This document shows positions 10,178 to 47,881 of a DNA stretch of 64,000 nt, piece after piece. Under the pieces are notes generated by a model. That model had not been told where the DNA came from. It made no database searches and saw only the letters and a list, made by a program, of their open reading frames with translations. Source of the stretch: a virus. The position numbers and the translations under genes are program-made. How positions within the stretch are numbered: position 1 is the first letter of the stretch; every line of letters begins with the position of its first letter. The stretch spans positions 32,001 to 96,000 of IMG/VR virus record IMGVR_UViG_3300020470_001313, one strand, 5' to 3'.

Positions 10178-10491
10178 TTGTCGTAGTCTACTGCGAAGGC
10201 GGTTGAATTGTTAGCGTTAAGACGGTCTGCTGCTTCACGCTTATCATTGAAGTGTAGAAGAAGGATACCGTAGTGTATAATTTTTATGATATCTTTACGT
10301 GATGAACCTTTACGATCATAACGTGAAGCATACTTGAGAACATTACTTCTACAGAACGCTTCAGCATCACCTACAGAATCAATAAGGTCAAGAGTCTGAA
10401 CGTTACCGACAGAATAATGACCTTTGTATGTGCTTGAAATATAGTCCGAGATCTCCTTTAGTATCTCGGACTCACTGTACTTGTTACTCAT
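10174..10491 (-). CDS. DUF3310-like protein
   Basis: HY...QTLDLI...FCRSNVLKYASRYDRKG...DIIKIIHY. Confidence 0.75.
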   Translation of the reverse strand: MSNKYSESEILKEISDYISSTYKGHYSVGNVQTLDLIDSVGDAEAFCRSNVLKYASRYDRKGSSRKDIIKIIHYGILLLHFNDKREAADRLNANNSTAFAVDYDK

Positions 10492-11582
10492 TCTAAGGAC
10501 TTCAGAAGTTGTTCATCTGTTAGTTCCTCTTCATTATACACTGTTTCTTCTCCTGCGTCAACCTTAGTATAAAGATCAAGGAATGACTGCTTAGTATCCT
10601 CATCAAAACGATTGATACAATTGGTTAGTGCCTTCAACTTGTCACCAAAGATGCTATATGCTTGAGCAATATGCACCAAACGTCTGGTGGTTATGATCTC
10701 ATCCACTCCACCATCATAGAATGTTTTACGAATTGCTCCTGCCCACTTAACTAGGTTCTCAGCAAACTCTTTATCACATCCTACATTGAGTAGAATTTTA
10801 GTCTCGGTAACTGGAGTAGGATAGGACTGTTCAAATGTTACTGGGAATCTTTCAAGGAACGCTTCGTTGAGCACGTTAGTTCCAATAAATCTGCCGTCGT
10901 CTGAACCTTTACCTTTAGTATTTGCTGTGGCAACGACTGTGAAACCTTGTGCGGGTCTGACGTACTCTCCGATCTTTTTAAGGAAAATTCCTTTACCTTC
11001 AAGGACGGACTGGAGGCAGAGAATCTTGTTTGAGGCAAGGTCAATTTCGTCAAGGAGCAAGACAGCCCCTCGCTGGAGAGCTTCAACAACAGGTCCGTTG
11101 TGCCAGACGGTATCGCCGTTAACAAGACGGAAGCCCCCAATGAGATCATCTTCATCTGTTTCTATAGTAATGTTTACACGAATCAATTCACGATTGGTTG
11201 CGGCACATGTTTGCTCAACAGAAACAGTCTTACCGTTACCAGATAAACCAGTAATGAATACAGGATAGTATGCTTTGGATTGAATTATTTTTTTAAGATC
11301 ATTATAAGGACCAAATGGTACGAAAGTTTTATCCTTAGTAGGAACCAAACTTACATCCACTGCCTTAGCAGGTGCTTCAAATACTCTTTCAAGATCTGCT
11401 ACTGTGAGATCCCACTTACCTCGTCCAACCTTAAATTGTTTAAGTCTTTTGAAGACTGTCGGTTGACTAACTCCAAACTTATCAACAGCAGCACGGATAG
11501 CAGTAGAACCAAATTCATTACCAAATTTGCGTTTGATGAATTTTGTGATGTCATTGGTTGAAAGTTCAAGTTTTTGTGGCAT
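10488..11582 (-). CDS. cobS: CobS/MoxR-like AAA+ ATPase
   Basis: GLSGNGKT, LLLDEID, ATANTKGKG, NEAFLERF. Confidence 0.92.
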   Translation of the reverse strand: MPQKLELSTNDITKFIKRKFGNEFGSTAIRAAVDKFGVSQPTVFKRLKQFKVGRGKWDLTVADLERVFEAPAKAVDVSLVPTKDKTFVPFGPYNDLKKIIQSKAYYPVFITGLSGNGKTVSVEQTCAATNRELIRVNITIETDEDDLIGGFRLVNGDTVWHNGPVVEALQRGAVLLLDEIDLASNKILCLQSVLEGKGIFLKKIGEYVRPAQGFTVVATANTKGKGSDDGRFIGTNVLNEAFLERFPVTFEQSYPTPVTETKILLNVGCDKEFAENLVKWAGAIRKTFYDGGVDEIITTRRLVHIAQAYSIFGDKLKALTNCINRFDEDTKQSFLDLYTKVDAGEETVYNEEELTDEQLLKSLE

Positions 11583-26314: not shown

Positions 26315-27937
26315 TTAGAAAGTTCCGCGCTTCGCATCCTCAGCACTAAGATCTTTATCGTTAAATAACGGTTTTTGTTCTTGTGCAGGTGCTCCTCCAG
26401 CAGCGGGATCCATCCCTCCACCAGCAGCGGCCATCATTGCTTCTTCAGCAGGATCTACGATCTTACCTTCTGCCATTTCACTCTCAATCTGTTTATCTAT
26501 TTCTTTTATTTCTACGTCAGTCTGCTTAAGAACCTGACGACGTACGTAATCTATTGAGAAGTATTTGCCTACGAATGGATCAATTACATTAACTAGATTC
26601 ATTCTTTCATTGCGGATTTCAGTCTCCTTCAGTTCGTTGAAGTAACTGTCAGCAATGTAATCAATCTGGATGTTCTCCTTCATATCATCCCATTCTTCAA
26701 TGGAGATAATACCTTTAAGAATCAACTGAGTCTTCAGAAGATCAAGGAATAGTTCACCAAATCTCTTACGTAGACGTGCAATGAATTTTTGGAATTTAAC
26801 TTCGTCTCGTGTTATCTCTGCTGCGCGACCAATGTTAAATGTAGTTTCTGTCTCTAGTCTGGAGGTTGGGACGTTGAGTGCTTTGTAGAGTTTCTTTTGG
26901 AAGTACTTGACATCCTCAAGTTCGCCAAGATTTTGACCACCAGGGAGAGTAGTAATCTCCGTTCCTCTACCACCTTCACGGCGAGGTAACCAAAAATCTT
27001 CAAGCATTGACATAAACTTCTTATCGTCTCGTATCTCACCTGTAGCCGCGTCATACACCAGCTTATTGCGATATCTACCCATAACCTCACGGAGATATTG
27101 CTCTGCTTTTTGCTTAGGTAAGTTACCCACATCAATGTAGAAAATTCTACGCTCTGGGGCACGAGATAAACGATAGATGACAAGGGAATCCTCAATCATG
27201 CGGAGTTGGTTTACCGCTTTGATTGCCTTATGTAGGTGAGACAGTACCATGTTCTTATTAAGATCCATGATACCTGAGTGAACATAAGTAACAGAATCAG
27301 GAGAAATCTTCAGTCCTTGATTACCTGTTTGCTTAAGTCCTTTAGGATTGTATAGGAAATAGTCTACTTGTTTCTGAGTTAGAGCATCATTTAATTCTAC
27401 TGGTCCACCAGAACGTACTTTCTGACTACCATCTATCTCAGTAACCTTTCTAATCTTGCGAGGGTCAATATATCTAATGTCAACCAGACCCTTCTTTGGT
27501 TGCTTAGGATCAATTACCTTATGATAAAAAAGTCTTCCGTCCACATACCAGCGGCGAAAGATCTCGTAACTTCTATTGTCAAAATCTAAAAGTCTTAGAA
27601 TCGTATCAAACTCTTCTCTAATTAACTTCTTGATTTTTTCTGATTGCTTTAAATTTGATAGTTCAACTGCTACTGGTACTGCATCAAAGTTCCCACATAT
27701 TGTTTCATTAACCACATCATCTACAGCAGAGTCACACTCTGGTTGTAGAATCATATCACGATAACGTCCAATTAACTCATATTCATTACGAACAGTCCCA
27801 TCTATATCTACAGTATATCCAAAGTGAGACCCACCTACGACGGGATAAGATCCATCTAGGTTGTCTTTCTGCACGAAAGAAGGCCCCTTTGGAGCCTTCT
27901 TCGCTCTTTCTATGGAAAAACCGAATAGTTGTGACAT
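26315..27937 (-). CDS. gp20: Portal protein
   Basis: WYVDGR, YRLSRAPERRIFYIDVGNLP, EDFWLPRREGGRGTEI. Confidence 0.99.
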   Translation of the reverse strand: MSQLFGFSIERAKKAPKGPSFVQKDNLDGSYPVVGGSHFGYTVDIDGTVRNEYELIGRYRDMILQPECDSAVDDVVNETICGNFDAVPVAVELSNLKQSEKIKKLIREEFDTILRLLDFDNRSYEIFRRWYVDGRLFYHKVIDPKQPKKGLVDIRYIDPRKIRKVTEIDGSQKVRSGGPVELNDALTQKQVDYFLYNPKGLKQTGNQGLKISPDSVTYVHSGIMDLNKNMVLSHLHKAIKAVNQLRMIEDSLVIYRLSRAPERRIFYIDVGNLPKQKAEQYLREVMGRYRNKLVYDAATGEIRDDKKFMSMLEDFWLPRREGGRGTEITTLPGGQNLGELEDVKYFQKKLYKALNVPTSRLETETTFNIGRAAEITRDEVKFQKFIARLRKRFGELFLDLLKTQLILKGIISIEEWDDMKENIQIDYIADSYFNELKETEIRNERMNLVNVIDPFVGKYFSIDYVRRQVLKQTDVEIKEIDKQIESEMAEGKIVDPAEEAMMAAAGGGMDPAAGGAPAQEQKPLFNDKDLSAEDAKRGTF

Positions 27938-31082: not shown

Positions 31083-32738
31083 TCAGCGATACTCCCACAT
31101 ATACGCACGATCTCCGTACTCATCGGTGTGCCAAACGTCTCCATCCGCATCAACGAATGTATCTTCCGCAAGATGATCATCAATAAATCCGAAGGGTGCC
31201 ATATCCTGTTCTATATTTTCTTTCTGATCATCATATATTCTTTGACGGACATCATTGTCATTCATTTCTCTGAAGTATGGTTGTAATGCCAACCATGCAA
31301 ATATAACCAGAGTCATCGCTAGATCATCATTACATCCATCCTCTGCCTCAAAAGATTTACCCTTTTGAATGAACGTAGTAAGTTCTGATATTATGTCGTA
31401 GTCTGAGATTAAGAGTTTATCTTCTTCTATTAATGCTTTTAAATTAGAGCATCCAATCTGTTTAACAGTGGTACTCATCTTAACACCCATCTGGGTTTTT
31501 GTTCCTGAAAATCCTTGTCCTACTACCTGACCTGCTCTACCTCTCATAGATGCCATAAGAAGATTATCATACTCCAAATCAAAATGTATAATGTCAGCAA
31601 CCTGTCCACCAACATCATTTACTTCACATAGAACAAAAGCATGATTATAATTTGAAGCAGTCTGAACTATAATATTAGGAAATAATAAAGGTTTTATAGT
31701 ATTGCTTCTATACTTAGCAACAAGTTTATATGGGAACGTGGTTGTATCTATAACTGTGAATGCAGAATAGTCAGCAGACACACCTCTAGCCACATCACAT
31801 GCTATAACATATTGATGATCTTTAATTGCTTCTTCATATATATCCAGACCAGCATTTGATTTAACAGCATCATCATATGCTAAAACTTTTAACTTACTTG
31901 GTGAGATGAGAGTGTCAACAGATCCTAAGAACTCACACTCAAACTCAACTTTGAACTGTTGTTCAGATGTATTAGCAATAGTCTGGGCTTTCCATTTATC
32001 ATCTCTGCCTGGAACTTCAGACCAATGCACTTCTGTATTTACATACTCATTTTTTCCACGTTCTGAATCATGCCACAATTTGTAGAACATGTTCATACCA
32101 TGTGGTGTGGATATAATTATAACCTTGGTTTTCTTACCAGAAGATATAGTAGGATATACAGAGGAGAAGAACTCATCTGCAATATGTGTAGGAACGAACG
32201 CGAACTCATCTAAGAATATAACGTTGAATGACATACCACGAACAGCACTACTAGATGTAGATGCTGCCATGATCTTTGAACCATTCTCTAATTCTAGACT
32301 ACCTCGGTTCCAATTTACCACCCCTTGCTGTAACCACTTCGGTAAGTGTTCGTATGATTTTTGTAACCTCCCCAACATCTCCCGCGACGTTGCCGCTTTG
32401 TTGGCGAGGATCGCGACGTTAACCTCTTCATTAAATAATACGTACCATAGAAGGTAACTCGTAACAATAGTGGACTTCCCAGATTGCCTGGGTAGTTTTG
32501 CAATGTTGAATCTGTGCTCATGAAATTTATTCACCATTTCCTCTTGGAAAGGATACATGTTAAAAGGAACAAGACCCTCATCAAGAGAAACAATTTGAAC
32601 ATACTCACGAATGAAGTATGCAGGATCGCCAGCACATTTTAAAAATTCAGCAACCTGTTCTTTGGTAAAATTCTGAGCGACATTAGATCGCTTCAGATTG
32701 GGATTACCTAAGTAAATATCATTTGGGGCGGTTGCCAT
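31083..32738 (-). CDS. gp17: Terminase large subunit
   Basis: YLGNPNLK, PRQSGKST, IFLDEFAF, STPHG, DVARG, DDLAM. Confidence 0.99.
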   Translation of the reverse strand: MATAPNDIYLGNPNLKRSNVAQNFTKEQVAEFLKCAGDPAYFIREYVQIVSLDEGLVPFNMYPFQEEMVNKFHEHRFNIAKLPRQSGKSTIVTSYLLWYVLFNEEVNVAILANKAATSREMLGRLQKSYEHLPKWLQQGVVNWNRGSLELENGSKIMAASTSSSAVRGMSFNVIFLDEFAFVPTHIADEFFSSVYPTISSGKKTKVIIISTPHGMNMFYKLWHDSERGKNEYVNTEVHWSEVPGRDDKWKAQTIANTSEQQFKVEFECEFLGSVDTLISPSKLKVLAYDDAVKSNAGLDIYEEAIKDHQYVIACDVARGVSADYSAFTVIDTTTFPYKLVAKYRSNTIKPLLFPNIIVQTASNYNHAFVLCEVNDVGGQVADIIHFDLEYDNLLMASMRGRAGQVVGQGFSGTKTQMGVKMSTTVKQIGCSNLKALIEEDKLLISDYDIISELTTFIQKGKSFEAEDGCNDDLAMTLVIFAWLALQPYFREMNDNDVRQRIYDDQKENIEQDMAPFGFIDDHLAEDTFVDADGDVWHTDEYGDRAYMWEYR

Positions 32739-40522: not shown

Positions 40523-43500
40523 TTAAGCGAATGAGGATATAGTCAAAGTAGTTACATCATTAGCAGCGACAGCTTCTCCAACCTTGAAGAATCCATCAAC
40601 ATTATCAACAGTAATTAAACTCGTACCCATAGCAGTGATAACTCCAGTAGTACCAGAGGTTGCTCCAGTTACTGTTGCACCAACTTCCATCGTTGTGATA
40701 TCAGCAAGTGCGAAGGTTGCATGAGTGAATACTGTAGCAGTATTAATCGTTGCGTTAGCAAAGATTGTAGCAATATCAATAGTTGAACTATTACCATGAA
40801 TAGCAGATACAGGTATCGTTGCACTGTTACCATGAATTGCAGAAACAGGAATGGTAGCACCATTACCATGAATAGCACCAACAGACAGGGTAGCAGTGCT
40901 ACCGTGGATAGCACCAACCGTAGTTGTTGCATTACCATGAATAGCAGCAACACCAGTAACTGCGTTACCATCTCCAGATCCATCAATTGTGATAGTGTCA
41001 GAAGCAGCATATCCAGTACCATCATTATTAATTACAGCACTTACTACGTGTCCAGATGAATTGGTAGTAATATCAAGAGTCAATCCAGTACCAGAGTTAT
41101 TAGTAGTTGTAGAAACACCAGTTATAGTTTGACTAGCAGGGTATCCAGTACCAGCTACCATTATTGAATTAAGAGTCTCAACACCAGTTGCATTAGCATT
41201 AGTTAATGTGATTGTATCTGATGCAGCATAACCAGAACCATCGTTAACGATAGTCATTCCAGTTACAGAACCAGATCCATTAACAGCAACAGTAACTGTT
41301 AATCCAGAACCAGATCCACCTGTTGTAGTTGCAACTGTGCCAGCAGAATAACCTGAAGCAGCAGCAGTAATAGAACCAAGTGTAGCAACACCAGATGCGT
41401 TAGCATTGGTGATTGTAATTGAATCACTATTAGCATAATTCAAACCATCATTATTAACTGTTACTCCAGTTACTCCACCAGATCCATTAACTGTAATGTC
41501 AACAGTTAAACCAGTACCAGATCCACCTGATGTGGTGGCAATTGCAGATCCCGCAGAATAACCACTACCAGCAGCAGTGATAGTTCCAAGTGTATTAACA
41601 CCAGATGCATTAGCGTTAGCAATCGTAATTACTTCAGAAGCAGCATATCCTGATCCATCATTGTTAATTGAAACACCATCAACAACACCGTTAGTAACAG
41701 TAACGTCAACAGTCAATCCAGTACCTGAACCAGATGATGTTGTTGCAAGAGCAGTACCTGTACCATATCCAGTACCGCCAGATGCAATTGAACCAAGTGT
41801 CTTAACACCAGATGCATTGGCATTGGTAATTGTAATTGTCTCAGCATTAGCATAACCAGATCCATCATCATTAATAGTTACTCCAGTTACGGCACCATTT
41901 CCATCAACTGTAATGTCAGCAGTTAATCCAGTACCAGATCCAGATGCAGTTGTTGCTATTCCAGATCCAGCAGCATAACCTGTTCCAGCAGTTGCAATAG
42001 AACCAAGAGTTCTAACACCTGTTGCATTTGCGTTAACAATAGTGATTGTGTCATCTACAGCATATCCTGTACCAGCAGCATTAATTGCTGCGTTAGTTAC
42101 AACACCATTAGATGTTGTAAGATTAAGTGTTAAACCTGATCCACTTCCTCCAGTAGTTGCAATAGCAGTTCCATTCGCATATCCTGTACCACCAACGAGA
42201 GTATCAACAGTGGAAGCACCACCAGCATTAGCATTAACAACTGTAATTGTTTCTCCGTTAGCGTATCCTGTACCTGGTGCGTTAACTGCAATGTTTGTAA
42301 TATTACCATTTCCATCAACAGTAGTGTCAAAGGTTAATCCAGATCCACTTCCACCTGTTGTAGCAACTCCTGTAGCAGAACTAAATCCACCAACACCACC
42401 TGATAATGTACCCAAGTTCAAGGTAGAAACACCACCAAGGTTAGGGTTAGTGATTTGTAGATTATCTCCAATTAAATATCCTGAACCAGCACCATTTACA
42501 GCAAGAGCAGTTATAGCACCAGCAGCATTGACTGTAGTATCAACTGTCAATCCAGTACCAGTACCACCAGATGTGGCAACAGCAGTTCCAGCACTGAATC
42601 CACCAAGACCACTAGCAGTGATTGATCCAAGACTTACAACAGTTCCTGGTGTAGGATCTCCAGATAGATTAAGTGTTAATGTTGTAGAAGTAGCAAGGTT
42701 GTTTAACATAGCACTAAGTTGTGCGTATGCATTATCAAGTTTTGCTTGAACTCTTGCTTCTGTATAGTAAAGGTTAGTTCCCTCAGCAAGATCAGCAGTA
42801 TCATGGTTGTTAAGGTTTGCTGCCTGAGTAGCAGTTGCAGGAGTAATATCTCCAGTACCATCAAAGGCAGTACCACCAATATTTCTTGCGGTTGCTAAAG
42901 CAGTTGCAGTTGCAGCATTTCCAGAGGTATCCTGATTACCCGCTGTATTAACGCCAGGAAGGTTTATAGCAGCAGTACCATCAAATGATACTCCACCAAT
43001 GTTTCTTGCCGTTTCAAGGGCAGTAGCAGTGTCTGCGTTACCTGTAACATCACCAGTCAAATTACCAGTCACATTACCTGTTATTGTACCACCTGCTTCA
43101 ATATCATCCGTCCAGATCTTACTCCATCTATGAGTAGTCGTTCCTAAAGTATAAGAACTATCTGTGTCAGGTTTAATATTCTTAGAATCTGTAGTTGCAG
43201 CAAGAAGGTTACCAGTTACATTACCAGTAACAGATCCAGTTAGTGATGCTGTAATAACACCAGCAGCAAAGTTACCCGATGCGTCACGAATGACTAGGTT
43301 GTTTGCAGAATTAGCAGAGTTAGATGTAATTGTAATACTTGGATCACCAGCAACACCACCACCATTTGTAATACCAATACCACCACCAGATACCTGAATG
43401 GTACGTTGAGCATAAGTGTTGGCAGCTGTACGGGCAACCAGACCTGTTCCACTCATTCCTGCCAAAGCAGTTATATCTGCATCATCATAGGTAGTAGTAA

Positions 43501-46500
43501 CCGTAAAGTCTGCACTACCATTAACTGAAACCGAACCATTTACTACACCATCAATGGTGAGAGTTCTAGCAGTTTTCCAAACATCAGCAGAAGTTGCGTT
43601 ACCTTGAATACCTGCACCAGCTCCAGCAGCACTTTCAACAGTGATGATATGAGCAGAGAAGTCTCCAGAAGAGTCACGAGCAACAACTGTAGAGTTTGTA
43701 GCAGCAGTTGCAGTTGTCATTCCATCTAACAAGTCTGCGTTAAGGTTAGTAATCTTAACTGTGTTAGGAATAACTAAAGCAGGACCAGAGGAAACTTGTG
43801 AAATTAATTGTCCGTCAACAGTAATAGTACCATCAACGTTTACGTTGTTATCTACATCAAGAGCAGTACCAGCACCAGTAATATTAACTGCACCAACCTG
43901 TAAAGTACCATCAGTTCCACTAAATGTCTCAGCACTATTGGTTGCGTCAGTTAAAAGTCTAAATGTATTGAGGTTGTTATCCCATCCAAGGAATCCAATT
44001 CTTGCAGCAGTATCGTAGTATCTAAACTCAATACCACGATCTAAACCATCATTAGAAGTAGGAGCAGTAGCACCACCAAGAGTCATTACGGGATCTTCTA
44101 CCGTAGTGACCGTACTTTCAACAGTAGTTGTAGATCCTAGTACGGTGAGGTTTCCACCCACTTGGAAATTATTTCTTACTTCAGCATTACCTGAAGATGT
44201 ATCTACAAAGAAACTATTCTGAGTTCCAACAGTATCATATACAATGAAATCTCCACCAGTGTAAAGGTTCTTATCTACTCTTGCACCACCAGCAGTTGTT
44301 AATGATACCTGAGCATCAGCAAAGGATGTAATATCCTTAGTATCTGTGATAGTAATCTTACCAGCAAATGCTGCATCATCAGTCTGAGTTAAAGTTCCTG
44401 TAGTTTCTAAGTTACCATAAACTCTTGCACTACCACCAATAGCAGTGTCTCTAGCAATACCAACACCACCAGTTACTTGTAATGAACCATCAGCAGCATA
44501 AGATCCTGTTAAGGTTTGCTGTGTGTTGTTAGTAATAGATGTAATACCAGTAACACCTAGAGTGTTGTTAATACCAGCAGCAAGAGATACGTCTAGTGTA
44601 CCTGAGATATTTGTATTACCATTATCAGTATCTACTGTAAACTTATCTACAGCACCAGCAGTCTGAATCTTGAACATCTTATTATCAGACTTGACAATAA
44701 GATCATCTTGAATAGTTGTAGCACCATCAACATTTAATGTGCTATCAAAATCAACTGCATCCTGACCATTCAGTGTACCTTTAATAATTGTATTACCAGT
44801 TGAAGATGCAACTGTAAATTTATCAGTAGTTCCAGATCTAACTGCAAAGTCATTATCTACATCTACAGTTCCATTGAACTCTGAATTATTTGTAACTTCT
44901 AATGTTCCACCAATAGTTGTATTACTATCAACGTTAAGAGTTGAATTTAACTCAGTGTGTCCATCAGCAGTTAGAGTACCCTCAATATTAGTATTACCAG
45001 TTACGTTGTCAACAAAGAACTTATCAGTTGTACCATTTCTAACTGCAAAGTCTGCATCTACGTCAACAGTACTATTAAATTCTGTGGCACCAGTTACAGT
45101 TACGTCACCATCTATTTGTACATCTCTACCAAGAGTAGTATCACCATGAACTGTGAATGTACCTACAGTTGCTGAACCAGTTGAAGATATACCAACAACT
45201 GTATTACCAGTAGGACCATCAACACTAAACTTAACTGTATCTCCAGAGTTTTTCTTACCTACAAATAAACCTTCTCCAGTACCAGTACCACCAATGTGTA
45301 ATGAAGTATTAATACCAGCACCACCATATACTCTTAAGTTAGAAGTGTTATGGTTTGAGTAACTTGGAGTGTATGCAGAAACAGAACCAGTACGTAATTT
45401 ATAACGTATTGATAGGTAGTTCCTTAAACCGTAGTTCTCAGTTGCGTCTTCTTGCTGGTTAAAGTCACCGTTAAGATATAAATCACCATTGAATAATACA
45501 TTCTTATCAAAGTATGCACCACCATCTACTCTTAATGCACCATAATCATTATTCTGAATTGAGTGAGGAGCACCAGATAGAATATCAGGATTATCTGTAG
45601 ACTCAAAATGAACAAGACCAGCTACATTTAACTGTGCAGCAGCATCAATATTACCAGTTTGATTTAATACACCACCAATGTCAACATTACCTGTAGTGGT
45701 ATGAAGTGTAGTCTTAGTAGTTCCTGAACCATTCTTAAGTTCTAAAGTCTTAGAAGCACCTTGGAATACAATATTATCATCAAATCTACTTGTACCATGA
45801 GTACGGAAGTTAGTATCTACATCTAACGTACCACCAATATTTACATCTTGTGTAATACCAACACCACCTGCAACTACCAAATCTCCAGTAGTATTAGATG
45901 TTGAGTTAGTATTTGTTGTTAGTTTTAAGTTACCAGCGATGACCCCTGCATCTGTTCCAGAGAATACCTCTGAGGTATTTGTGGCATCGTAGAGGAATGT
46001 GAATGCTCCTGTATGGCCTCCAAGATCAGCGGCCGAATCGTCGTAACCAAAGAATCCAATTTTTGCGCTTGCGTCGTAATATCTGAATTCAACTCCTCTA
46101 TCCTTATTGTCGTCTGACGCAGGAGCAGTATCCCCGCCAAGAGTAACGATAGGATCATCAACAGCAAGAGTGGTTGAATTAACCGTTGTAGTTGTTCCAT
46201 CTACTTGTAAATCTCCACTTACTACTACGGTTCCAGTGATCGCACGATCATCACCTGGATCCAAATACATTGTTGCATTACTAGTAGCAATATAATTGGT
46301 TTGTATTTTTACATCTTCTATATGAACTTTACCAGTTGCTTCAGTAGCATCAATAGTTACAGTATCTTCTGCTTGAATAACAACATTACTTGTTCCAGCA
46401 CCAGTATTAGCAGCAACAAGTGTTAGGTTTCTAGCATTAGCACTGTTCTGAGATATTCCAAGGGTGAAGTTTCCATCACCTGTCTTGCTTATTGTCTGAT

Positions 46501-47881
46501 TAGTTGCTCCATCAAATGTTACATCGGGGTCACTGAAGTAAGATCTGACGTTAATATCAATCTCTCCACTGCCACTGTCGCCAGTATTATTAGCACCGAA
46601 TAGAAGATTCCCTGAAGTATCGTTAATTTTAACATAGTTTAAATAATCAAATCCATGATGTGAACCAGCTACAGTTAATTCCTGATCTAGTTCAAAGTGT
46701 TGTTGCGTGTTGTTATCAGAGAAGGATATTCTATTGTTTTGAAGTTGAGTATTATCAACACCCAAAGCACTGATGCTGACATGACCGTTATCATCAACAT
46801 CAAAATCTTCCTGTGCAAAGGAAGCGAGACCTTTCTGTTCCGTCTTCGCCGCAGCAAGATATCTCCATCCTCCAGTATCAGAAGCATCCGTATGAGTAGG
46901 TGCGCCACCTCCAGACGCAATGCCTGTAATAGCCTGATAAACCTTCGTAGCGTTCTCAATAATATCGTAACGTACATATGTTGTACCTGCATTATAAGCA
47001 GCATACTTACTACCTTCTATTGCAGTAGCAATAGGAATAGTTTCTGCTGAAGTAAATCTACCCCACTGATCAACTGTGAATTGTGTTGTGTTTACAGTTA
47101 TATCAGAGTTAGTTGGAAGATCATCACCACCAACTGAAATAAGAGCTGGAGCATTATATGCACCAACATTAGCAATGAACTCTGCTTCTGATGCAATAGT
47201 TGTATCAATAAGGTCAATAGTTGGGTTACCAGCTACACCACTACCATTAACAATAGAAATCTTACCAGAAGAACCCTGAAGAGTTCTAGGAATCATATTA
47301 CCTGCTGATGCCCTAGTAATCAAACCTGTTGCAGTCATTCCTGCAATAGATGTTAAGTCAGTATCTAATGGTTGTACGTCTGTTAAACCGAGATCAACAT
47401 AAGAAGAAGGTGAAGCACCTGTAGTAATCCTACCTTTCGCGTCTACTGTTACCTTTGTATATTGCCCTGAAGAAGTTGTTGTACCATCATAATGTGGTAA
47501 TGTAGTTAAGATCTGTAATTGTGCCGATATTGATAAGTTAGAAGATCCATCAAATGTGCCCGAACCTGCTAAGTCACTTGATAACTGTATCTGACGTGGG
47601 TTTGCTAGTCTGGATGCTGTAGCAGCATTACCGATAACAGTTGCGGTGATAGATCCTGCACTAAAATTACCGTCTGCGTCCCTTGCGACAAGAGTGTTTG
47701 CTGTGTTAGCAACTGACTCTATCGGTCTAGCATATGGCAGCGTGTTCCAACCCCTAACACCATCACCAATTTTGAATCGGTTTGTATCAAGTTCAATTCC
47801 AAGTTCACCTTGGGCTAACGTTGGGTTTTCGTTTGCCCACTCTTGAGCACCCCCTCGTCTTAGTTGAATTCTATTAGCCAT
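40523..47881 (-). CDS. Giant fibre/adhesin-like virion protein (2452 aa)
   Basis: N-terminal RIQLRRG...NPTLAQGELGIELDT.RFKIGDG fibre motif; several G/T/A-rich repeat families. Confidence 0.9.
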   Translation of the reverse strand: MANRIQLRRGGAQEWANENPTLAQGELGIELDTNRFKIGDGVRGWNTLPYARPIESVANTANTLVARDADGNFSAGSITATVIGNAATASRLANPRQIQLSSDLAGSGTFDGSSNLSISAQLQILTTLPHYDGTTTSSGQYTKVTVDAKGRITTGASPSSYVDLGLTDVQPLDTDLTSIAGMTATGLITRASAGNMIPRTLQGSSGKISIVNGSGVAGNPTIDLIDTTIASEAEFIANVGAYNAPALISVGGDDLPTNSDITVNTTQFTVDQWGRFTSAETIPIATAIEGSKYAAYNAGTTYVRYDIIENATKVYQAITGIASGGGAPTHTDASDTGGWRYLAAAKTEQKGLASFAQEDFDVDDNGHVSISALGVDNTQLQNNRISFSDNNTQQHFELDQELTVAGSHHGFDYLNYVKINDTSGNLLFGANNTGDSGSGEIDINVRSYFSDPDVTFDGATNQTISKTGDGNFTLGISQNSANARNLTLVAANTGAGTSNVVIQAEDTVTIDATEATGKVHIEDVKIQTNYIATSNATMYLDPGDDRAITGTVVVSGDLQVDGTTTTVNSTTLAVDDPIVTLGGDTAPASDDNKDRGVEFRYYDASAKIGFFGYDDSAADLGGHTGAFTFLYDATNTSEVFSGTDAGVIAGNLKLTTNTNSTSNTTGDLVVAGGVGITQDVNIGGTLDVDTNFRTHGTSRFDDNIVFQGASKTLELKNGSGTTKTTLHTTTGNVDIGGVLNQTGNIDAAAQLNVAGLVHFESTDNPDILSGAPHSIQNNDYGALRVDGGAYFDKNVLFNGDLYLNGDFNQQEDATENYGLRNYLSIRYKLRTGSVSAYTPSYSNHNTSNLRVYGGAGINTSLHIGGTGTGEGLFVGKKNSGDTVKFSVDGPTGNTVVGISSTGSATVGTFTVHGDTTLGRDVQIDGDVTVTGATEFNSTVDVDADFAVRNGTTDKFFVDNVTGNTNIEGTLTADGHTELNSTLNVDSNTTIGGTLEVTNNSEFNGTVDVDNDFAVRSGTTDKFTVASSTGNTIIKGTLNGQDAVDFDSTLNVDGATTIQDDLIVKSDNKMFKIQTAGAVDKFTVDTDNGNTNISGTLDVSLAAGINNTLGVTGITSITNNTQQTLTGSYAADGSLQVTGGVGIARDTAIGGSARVYGNLETTGTLTQTDDAAFAGKITITDTKDITSFADAQVSLTTAGGARVDKNLYTGGDFIVYDTVGTQNSFFVDTSSGNAEVRNNFQVGGNLTVLGSTTTVESTVTTVEDPVMTLGGATAPTSNDGLDRGIEFRYYDTAARIGFLGWDNNLNTFRLLTDATNSAETFSGTDGTLQVGAVNITGAGTALDVDNNVNVDGTITVDGQLISQVSSGPALVIPNTVKITNLNADLLDGMTTATAATNSTVVARDSSGDFSAHIITVESAAGAGAGIQGNATSADVWKTARTLTIDGVVNGSVSVNGSADFTVTTTYDDADITALAGMSGTGLVARTAANTYAQRTIQVSGGGIGITNGGGVAGDPSITITSNSANSANNLVIRDASGNFAAGVITASLTGSVTGNVTGNLLAATTDSKNIKPDTDSSYTLGTTTHRWSKIWTDDIEAGGTITGNVTGNLTGDVTGNADTATALETARNIGGVSFDGTAAINLPGVNTAGNQDTSGNAATATALATARNIGGTAFDGTGDITPATATQAANLNNHDTADLAEGTNLYYTEARVQAKLDNAYAQLSAMLNNLATSTTLTLNLSGDPTPGTVVSLGSITASGLGGFSAGTAVATSGGTGTGLTVDTTVNAAGAITALAVNGAGSGYLIGDNLQITNPNLGGVSTLNLGTLSGGVGGFSSATGVATTGGSGSGLTFDTTVDGNGNITNIAVNAPGTGYANGETITVVNANAGGASTVDTLVGGTGYANGTAIATTGGSGSGLTLNLTTSNGVVTNAAINAAGTGYAVDDTITIVNANATGVRTLGSIATAGTGYAAGSGIATTASGSGTGLTADITVDGNGAVTGVTINDDGSGYANAETITITNANASGVKTLGSIASGGTGYGTGTALATTSSGSGTGLTVDVTVTNGVVDGVSINNDGSGYAASEVITIANANASGVNTLGTITAAGSGYSAGSAIATTSGGSGTGLTVDITVNGSGGVTGVTVNNDGLNYANSDSITITNANASGVATLGSITAAASGYSAGTVATTTGGSGSGLTVTVAVNGSGSVTGMTIVNDGSGYAASDTITLTNANATGVETLNSIMVAGTGYPASQTITGVSTTTNNSGTGLTLDITTNSSGHVVSAVINNDGTGYAASDTITIDGSGDGNAVTGVAAIHGNATTTVGAIHGSTATLSVGAIHGNGATIPVSAIHGNSATIPVSAIHGNSSTIDIATIFANATINTATVFTHATFALADITTMEVGATVTGATSGTTGVITAMGTSLITVDNVDGFFKVGEAVAANDVTTLTISSFA
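40690..42650 (-). repeat. 8 long (~70 aa) plus 8 short (11-12 aa) intragenic repeats
   Basis: Long: G.GLT.D.TV...V..N.G.GY....ITI.NANA.G; short: ATIPVSAIHGN-type. Confidence 0.9.
45925..46200 (-). CDS. Candidate nested +1-frame gene: TM plus coiled coil
   Basis: 91 aa; GGAG 12 nt upstream; host-frame GC3 elevated over the same interval. Confidence 0.45.
   Translation of the reverse strand: MEQLQRLIQPLLLLMILSLLLAGILLLRQTTIRIEELNSDITTQAQKLDSLVTTIRPLILEAIQEHSHSSTMPQIPQRYSLEQMQGSSLVT
46519..46635 (-). CDS. Candidate nested +1-frame 38-aa TM peptide
   Basis: MLKLTILQGIFYSVLIILATVAVERLILTSDLTSVTPM (manual translation). Confidence 0.3.
   Translation of the reverse strand: MLKLTILQGIFYSVLIILATVAVERLILTSDLTSVTPM
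46687..47004 (-). CDS. Candidate nested +1-frame membrane protein
   Basis: RRRRNRK...RK cluster directly before a TM segment; ACG/GCG codons enriched in the host frame. Confidence 0.45.
   Translation of the reverse strand: MLLIMQVQHMYVTILLRTLRRFIRLLQALRLEVAHLLIRMLLILEDGDILLRRRRNRKVSLPLHRKILMLMITVMSASVLWVLIILNFKTIEYPSLITTRNNTLN

Follow-up and report, generated by a model that had tools for sequence, protein, structure and literature searches.

We analyzed a 64,000-nucleotide stretch of viral DNA (hereafter the window; positions 32,001 to 96,000 of IMG/VR record IMGVR_UViG_3300020470_001313) in which a long fibre gene contains three open reading frames (ORFs), A, B and C, in its +1 frame. An earlier sequence-only reading had proposed the three as a hidden lysis cassette. 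Our results make it likely that C alone is real, as a +1 gene overprinted on the fibre gene; it would have originated in one allele class of a fibre domain (class I) and would travel with a recombining module. Codon comparisons across class I show the 91-codon +1 frame of C to be held open by selection from a fixed ATG to a fixed stop, and C probably encodes a small membrane protein, possibly related to lysis. The features concerned are the following.

40523..47881, minus strand: host gene of the three ORFs, encoding a 2452-amino acid (aa) fibre or structural protein; matches phrog_697 (E=0), with Pfam Mtd_N at the N-terminus
46200-45925, minus strand: ORF C, 91 codons and a stop, +1 relative to the fibre frame; evidence of selection was obtained for C but not for A or B
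47004-46687, minus strand: ORF A, 105 aa, +1 frame of the fibre gene; judged a frame shadow, not conserved
46635-46519, minus strand: ORF B, 38 aa, +1 frame of the fibre gene; judged a frame shadow, not conserved
45926..46216, minus strand: class I allele of the DRGxEFRYYD domain (host codons 556-652), the stretch carrying C; a recombination boundary lies at its upstream end

The source record is a 150.6-kb IMG/VR viral contig, about 85% complete by estimate, with 66-76% nucleotide identity to T4-like cyanomyoviruses of the Kyanoviridae (P-RSM1, P-SSM4 and S-SSM4), and the phage of the window is itself a T4-like cyanomyovirus. Homologues of the host gene in GenBank records of Kyanoviridae are annotated as fibre or YadA-domain structural proteins. 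A first comparison used codon alignments of 79 homologous loci fetched from IMG/VR. In about 26 of 42 relatives C was open and both its ATG and its stop were shared; the others had 2-5 stops. Three further IMG/VR scans, seeded from P-SSM4, P-RSM1 and S-RIM8, enlarged the sample of the domain to 151 unique sequences, 128 of them non-redundant at 97%. In the tree of these 128 sequences the open +1 frame is restricted to a single clade, class I, which numbers 62 unique sequences (45 when collapsed at 97% identity) and is made up of a core group with the window's phage and P-SSM7, a P-SSM4 group, a P-RSM1 group and others. Prochlorococcus is the host of most isolates carrying class I. Without exception, the 62 unique class I sequences have the ATG and 85 or more open codons, and earlier stops interrupt 77 of the 89 sequences outside the class, which have 1-6 stops save for a few scattered open ones. 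Metagenome contigs replicated this pattern: all nine new class I sequences were open with the ATG, and six of seven sequences from other classes had stops.

We call a Val, Ile or Leu codon of the host gene stop-prone if A (or G) as its third base would complete a +1-frame TAA, TAG or TGA with the base that follows. Among the 45 collapsed class I sequences, 10 of the 11 stop-prone sites inside C are free of stop-forming codons (sites 567, 571, 574, 578, 579, 581, 597, 608, 620 and 648; 27-45 sequences each). The remaining one, site 647, is stop-forming in 11 of 42 sequences, all from the P-RSM1 subclade, in which C is shortened to 86 aa, and site 652, the stop of C itself, is stop-forming in 44 of 45. 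Stop-prone sites flanking C on both sides are polymorphic, with stop-forming codons in 15-95% of class I sequences. The stop-free stretch coincides exactly with the ATG and the stop of C.

The pattern does not simply reflect sites that failed to change. Differences at stop-prone sites were counted as pyrimidine/pyrimidine (YY; T/C) or pyrimidine/purine (RY). Across 22 independent class I pairs, prone sites inside C show 23 YY differences, all T/C, and no RY, compared with 55 YY:80 RY at prone sites of the flanks in the same sequences (Fisher p=1.3e-8), 1 YY:4 RY at the non-prone Val and Leu sites inside C (p=2e-4) and 37 YY:27 RY when the other classes are scored at the columns of the prone sites in C. 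Within C, the four-fold sites of other amino acids have abundant transversions (64 of 117 differences), which argues that the local mutation spectrum is not the cause. A deficit of four-fold transversions in C relative to the flanks (p about 1e-5) was withdrawn, because the other classes have an equal transversion share at those columns (57%) and the deficit is thus a property of the domain and not of C. Among changes that are nonsynonymous in the host, an OLGenie-like ratio of those altering C to those silent in C (dNN/dNS) is 0.30 for C, against 0.59-0.80 for four flanking regions and 0.68 for the same columns in other classes, which lends C modest support.

These data have to be set against the explanation that A, B and C are all frame shadows, and that C is open only through the recent spread of a recombining module that was open by chance. 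In its favor, the fibre gene is a recombination mosaic: conflicting trees are obtained from its upstream, middle and downstream parts, and the 87.6% nucleotide identity of P-SSM7 to the window holds only from 46216 downward, starting exactly at the upstream end of the class I allele. Synonymous divergence within the open group is low over codons 556 to about 735, that is, some 80 codons past the stop of C. It is also an observation in its own right that codons 653-735 are nearly identical synonymously among the window's phage, P-SSM4 and P-RSM1 (0.14-0.19, compared to 0.4-0.5 elsewhere). What a chance-open module does not account for is that the prone sites of C change freely but only between T and C, while 40-59% of the changes in the flanks and the other classes go to purine, or that the stop-free stretch is bounded by the very ATG and stop of C. 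A neutral simulation was run 400 times from an open ancestor on a tree with branch lengths estimated from 33 four-fold columns (kappa 2.3; total length 5.7 substitutions per site), with codons drawn according to the Val, Ile and Leu usage of the flanks. At least 34 of the 45 tips remained open in 0.25% of the runs (P=0.0025), and the observed 2.4% of stop-forming cells was reached in 0 of 400. Retention is no longer rejected when the neutral tree is cut to one quarter of its length (P about 0.6), but the 23 T/C changes at prone sites argue against a rate at these sites only a quarter of that at four-fold sites. The site map, the pairs, the controls and the simulation led us to drop the recent spread of a recombinant module as the cause of the openness of C, and we consider it unlikely that C is a shadow like the other two.

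The start of C and the sequence surrounding it provide a second line of evidence, for which three features of the minus strand are needed.

46198..46200, minus strand: start codon of C, formed by host D561 (GAT) and the G of G562; GAT in 45 of 45 class I sequences
46201..46203, minus strand: TAG in the +1 frame directly before the ATG, upstream edge of the open frame; formed by host V560 (GTA) and the G that follows
46213..46216, minus strand: GGAG resembling a Shine-Dalgarno (SD) sequence, 12 nt upstream of the ATG

Among 13 Asp codons in this region, D561 and D575 alone are GAT in all 45 class I sequences, the others being GAC in 7-82% of sequences. D575 forms an invariant internal Met15 of C (46156-46158), directly before the predicted membrane-spanning segment. 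The two invariant in-frame ATGs, Met1 and Met15, recall holin dual-start motifs, and they might act as a dual start of that kind. The GGAG that the sequence-only reading had noticed upstream of C was recovered at 46216-46213, and GGAG, GAGG, AGGA or GGGG ends 12-14 nt before the ATG in 44 of 45 class I sequences. The corresponding host codon, Gly556, is GGA or GGG in 40 of 45 (89%), compared with 25-29% GGR at flanking Gly codons, of which 71-73% are GGT. This comparison of glycine codons shows the purine-rich motif to be maintained by selection, although it would be at best a weak ribosome-binding site.

Codon choice within C is also displaced. In class I, the third base of four-fold codons under the C-terminal two thirds of C is A in 54% and T in 24%. 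The other classes have T in 66% and A in 19% at these columns, and the class I flanks have T in 56-63%. Because these third bases are the middle bases of the codons of C, their shift to A makes its C-terminal part polar, with about 30% Leu, Ile, Val, Met and Phe, compared to 55% for the +1 frame generally. Host third positions are thus shown, on codon usage, to be biased so that the C-terminal two thirds of C become polar. The sequence-only reading had counted by hand a GC content at third codon positions (GC3) of about 32-34% over A and C and about 12% just downstream, which is approximately right; we obtained 29% for A, 33% for B and 34% for C, versus 12-14% between and after them, and 17.5% over the entire gene. 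Further GC3 peaks exist without an ORF (codons 41-80, 37.5%). A donor of higher GC content is not needed to explain the patch over C, as its four-fold sites are A-rich and not GC-rich; the additional C bases lie in TTC, TAC, GAC, CTC, GCC and ACC codons and result in Ser, Thr and Pro in the tail of C. If C were a frame shadow, neither the purine motif upstream of it nor the preference for A at third positions would be explained.

An open +1 frame, together with an SD-like motif poorly spaced at 12-14 nt, would also be compatible with ribosomes shifting from the fibre frame into C to produce a truncated fibre isoform with a hydrophobic tail. Other phages are known to use programmed +1 shifts to make structural proteins with an altered C-terminus. 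Such a shift would have to occur at or after the TAG directly preceding the ATG, since V560 is GTA followed by G, and hence stop-forming, in 33 of 45 class I sequences, while xTA is unused at the stop-free sites inside C. The invariance of the ATG of C also speaks against a shift, and no slippery motif was noticed, albeit without a systematic search. We regard this explanation as very unlikely.

The predicted product of C has the following main feature.

46120..46182, minus strand: predicted membrane-spanning segment of C, about residues 7-27; best 19-residue Kyte-Doolittle mean 2.57

Members of the family (45) have 86-92 aa, with one of 107 aa, and no Cys. Their hydrophobic segment has a hydropathy of 1.8-3.5, its N-terminal flank carries a charge of 0 to +4 and the C-terminal part one of −1 to −8. 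By the positive-inside rule, C is predicted to be a single-pass protein with a cytoplasmic N-terminus and about 60 periplasmic residues. AlphaFold2, run on an alignment of 31 sequences, predicts one helix over residues 2-70 (mean predicted local distance difference test score 77, about 78-95 up to residue 60) followed by a disordered tail; a confidently predicted long helix is on its own weak evidence. The predictions nevertheless agree on a conserved architecture, in which a transmembrane (TM) helix with the N-terminus inside and the C-terminus outside precedes an acidic helical part. Holins combine one or several TM helices with a short cytoplasmic C-terminus that is highly charged and usually basic. 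C does not fit a holin, having one TM segment but an acidic C-terminal part of about 60 aa that is predicted to lie outside the membrane.

Database searches gave C no reliable family. The profile phrog_739 ("Rz-like spanin") matches weakly in 19 of 31 members (best E=4e-4, profile positions 6-55 of 122), the match covering the TM segment and first helix of C and the N-terminal half of the profile, and the same profile matches in 14 of 14 control genomes at E<=1. We therefore rejected the PHROG spanin matches as evidence of membership, given their marginal E-values, half-covered profile and promiscuity. Pfam matches scatter over unrelated families that combine a TM segment with a coiled coil (Lectin_N, DivIC, COX2_TM), none of them near the cut-offs. 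A profile search of the PDB with C returned nothing, and the ESM Atlas held no match of at least 0.9. Candidate stand-alone homologues, five from the word-indexed search described below and nine from the exhaustive HMMER search, were rejected as +1 calls on fibre fragments, chimeric calls or coiled-coil repeats; P0008 and P0011 belong to the last kind. Proteins P0002-P0005 switch between the fibre frame and the frame of C. For P0003 the chimera was confirmed in a metagenome-assembled genome record (L263; LC629465.1, GCA_018448305.1), in which the fibre region is called as several short genes. The four look like products of frameshifted assemblies and are not evidence for C. No annotation of C was present in the GenBank records inspected (P-SSM7, P-SSM4, P-RSM1 and S-RIM8), and we found no description of it in the literature searched.

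Several observations weigh against C as a functional gene or against a role in lysis. Synonymous divergence between deep class I lineages is unreduced in C (0.40-0.50, versus 0.44-0.55 upstream), and this lack of synonymous constraint favors a frame shadow. The dNN/dNS of C is only modestly below the 0.49 of equally close pairs from other classes, several residues of C vary radically (P/R/Q, A/D/G), and 12-14 nt is a long spacing for an SD sequence. In the S-RIM8 sister group (L084, which is S-RIM8, L210 and L217; protein P0006) the start position reads GAC and not GAT, so that the ATG of C is absent. Most cyanomyoviruses with this fibre do not have C, and its confinement to one allele class would be odd for an essential lysis function. 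No homologue of C outside fibre genes was found among 5.8 billion clustered proteins searched by word index or 1.84 billion representatives searched with HMMER, and function is thus transferable from no known protein. As the sequence-only reading had itself cautioned for a lipobox o-spanin, none was found in any forward frame of the fibre gene. Its remark that no holin is recognizable elsewhere also agrees with our search of the 150-kb record (about 85% complete), in which neither the T holin family PF11031 nor phage lysozyme PF00959 was found. In the +1 frame of the S-RIM8 group we observed about 40 more open codons upstream and another ATG, giving ORFs of 131-141 aa with stops in some members.

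Taken alone, the sequence of the window does not place A, B and C clearly beyond chance. The three ORFs lie in the +1 frame at the coordinates originally reported, and the positions and quoted sequences were verified. Gene-wide shuffling of synonymous codons gave three +1 ORFs of at least 91 aa with P=0.004. Codons drawn from local pools leave the frame open by chance with a probability of 0.04 (A), 0.34 (B) and 0.07 (C). Of the 15 long genes compared in the window, others contain +1 ORFs of 92 aa (gene at 26315-27937, minus strand; shuffle P=0.003) and 105 aa (gene at 10488-11582, minus strand; shuffle P=0.037). The longest +1 ORF of the fibre gene is a fourth one of 118 aa in its C-terminal region (41025-40669, minus strand, starting at nucleotide 6856 of the gene), which was absent from the original list. 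A second copy of DRGxEFRYYD in the same fibre gene has six stops in the +1 frame. The caution raised in the sequence-only reading that +1 shadows are naturally Leu-rich is amply borne out, as Leu, Ile, Val, Met and Phe make up 55% of +1-frame residues in the fibre gene, and 31% of stop-free 19-residue stretches in that frame reach a mean Kyte-Doolittle value of at least 1.6, compared to 0% in frames 0 and +2. T occupies 55% of third codon positions in the gene and therefore most middle positions of +1 codons, which makes the +1 frame automatically rich in Leu, Ile and Val and hence TM-like. TM segments in A, B and C thus carry no evidential weight, and both this property and the long +1 ORFs in other genes of the window count in favor of the frame-shadow explanation.

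Comparison with relatives separates A and B from C. The four closest relatives (L002-L005; 90% amino acid identity in the host protein) have two internal stops in A, and in most other relatives the ATG of A is missing, stops are present, or both. The ATG of B is retained in about one third of relatives, ATA, ATC or ACG standing in its place in most, and some have stops. At stop-prone sites, 41 phylogenetically independent pairs drawn from 83 non-redundant sequences gave 27 RY:24 YY for A and 16 RY:15 YY for B, which is the neutral ratio. Interrupted frames, lost starts and neutral site changes led us to reject A and B as conserved genes, and on these alignments both are chance open stretches, shadows of the fibre frame. 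Frames interrupted in close relatives were what the sequence-only reading had named as the finding that would overturn its proposal, and A and B display exactly this. One clade shows a weak depletion of stop-forming changes: in 13 P-SSM7-like sequences (L083, which is P-SSM7, L019, L027, L031 and nine others), codons 326-464 show 1 RY:9 YY over six pairs, and only two +1 stops are fixed upstream of C (codons 402 and 464), with few polymorphic ones.

The cassette itself, in which A, B and C would act as hidden holin, antiholin and i-spanin, can draw on the shared frame and shared late mRNA of the three ORFs, on the weak Rz-like spanin matches of C, on the scarcity of +1 stops in the P-SSM7-like clade and on the lack of a recognizable holin, endolysin or spanin elsewhere in the record. 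Against it, the A-like or B-like frames contain extra stops in five of the 13 members of that clade, among them P-SSM7, A is interrupted in the closest relatives, the start of B is not kept and stop-prone sites in both change neutrally. The assignment of A and B to holin-like and antiholin-like roles falls with their lack of conservation, and with no o-spanin, holin or endolysin found the three-gene cassette is extremely unlikely. Of what was claimed for C, the overprinted gene is upheld by the comparative evidence, and the i-spanin label is not, as the profile matches are weak and a lipoprotein partner is missing. In the fibre gene, the +2 frame holds 315 stops and no ORF longer than 22 aa.

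We thus return to C as an overprinted gene, for which the following course of events can be proposed. C would have been born by overprinting in the ancestor of class I, and would since have traveled with the DRGxEFRYYD module as it recombines among marine cyanomyoviruses, P-SSM7, P-SSM4 and P-RSM1 being among the carriers. Ribosomes would start at the ATG of C on the late fibre mRNA and produce, at a low level, an inner-membrane protein of 86-92 aa that spans the membrane once, with its N-terminus in the cytoplasm and an acidic, largely helical periplasmic part. Our best guess is that this protein acts late on the cell envelope as a lysis accessory, similar to an i-spanin or an antiholin, since late expression and the predicted architecture would fit such a role. 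The main alternative function would be the exclusion of superinfecting phage. That C is a de novo inner-membrane component of a system for envelope disruption or lysis timing in Prochlorococcus myoviruses is a more specific proposal, which we hold to be unlikely.

The closest parallels include known nested genes. Lambda Rz/Rz1, phiX174 E in D and T7 18.7 in 18.5 are likewise small envelope or membrane genes lying wholly in a +1 frame, and in lambda Rz/Rz1 and other nested phage genes both genes are expressed from one late mRNA, as C would be, and selection is visible, as for C, as a stop-free window in the alternative frame. C differs from them in that its host is a 2452-aa tail fibre gene and not a lysis gene, in being limited to one allele class and having no sequence homologue, and in that no lipoprotein is involved. 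With i-spanins (lambda Rz, T4 PseT.3; PHROG 739, 214 and 89) C shares the predicted type II topology and a helical acidic periplasmic part. It is shorter than these proteins (lambda Rz has about 150 aa and T4 PseT.3 about 117 aa), and has no Cys, no o-spanin partner and no neighboring holin or endolysin. The resemblance is weak and one of architecture only; the missing partner, short length and patchy distribution argue against an essential spanin.

Other small phage proteins offer comparisons for the functions proposed. The T4 antiholin RI and spackle (Sp) have about 97 aa, an N-terminal signal-anchor, a helical periplasmic domain and a role in the envelope or lysis. C resembles them in its small size and in the predicted combination of an N-terminal anchor with a helical periplasmic domain. 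No sequence similarity between them and C was found, they are ordinary stand-alone genes, and the partner family PF11031 is absent from the record. T5 Llp and phi80/N15 Cor are receptor-blocking or exclusion proteins, small envelope proteins inherited with a tail-fibre or receptor-binding module. Unlike C, whose linkage to the fibre would be a consequence of overprinting, they are encoded by adjacent stand-alone genes and are often lipoproteins, and the fibre domain that carries C, unlike the modules linked to Llp and Cor, is not known to bind a receptor.

Overprinted genes are invisible to standard annotation, and the stop-prone-site test with independent pairs can be applied genome-wide to find more of them. 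If C is translated, it would represent a clear case of a gene born de novo within a structural gene, in a phage group that is ecologically dominant, with an origin that can be dated to one allele class and a visible reshaping of host-gene codon usage toward a polar protein. Exchange of a fibre module could then bring along a second, hidden gene, and C would become a candidate for late envelope functions in marine cyanomyoviruses, whose lysis genes are poorly known. Should the lysis or envelope reading also be true, C would give a first handle on how abundant ocean phages without recognizable holins or spanins open their hosts.

A last ORF of the region lies on the opposite strand. It encodes 235 aa rich in Pro, Val and Ala (42042-42749, plus strand) and is located antisense to a repeated Gly/Thr/Ala-rich part of the fibre gene, of whose codon periodicity it is probably a shadow.

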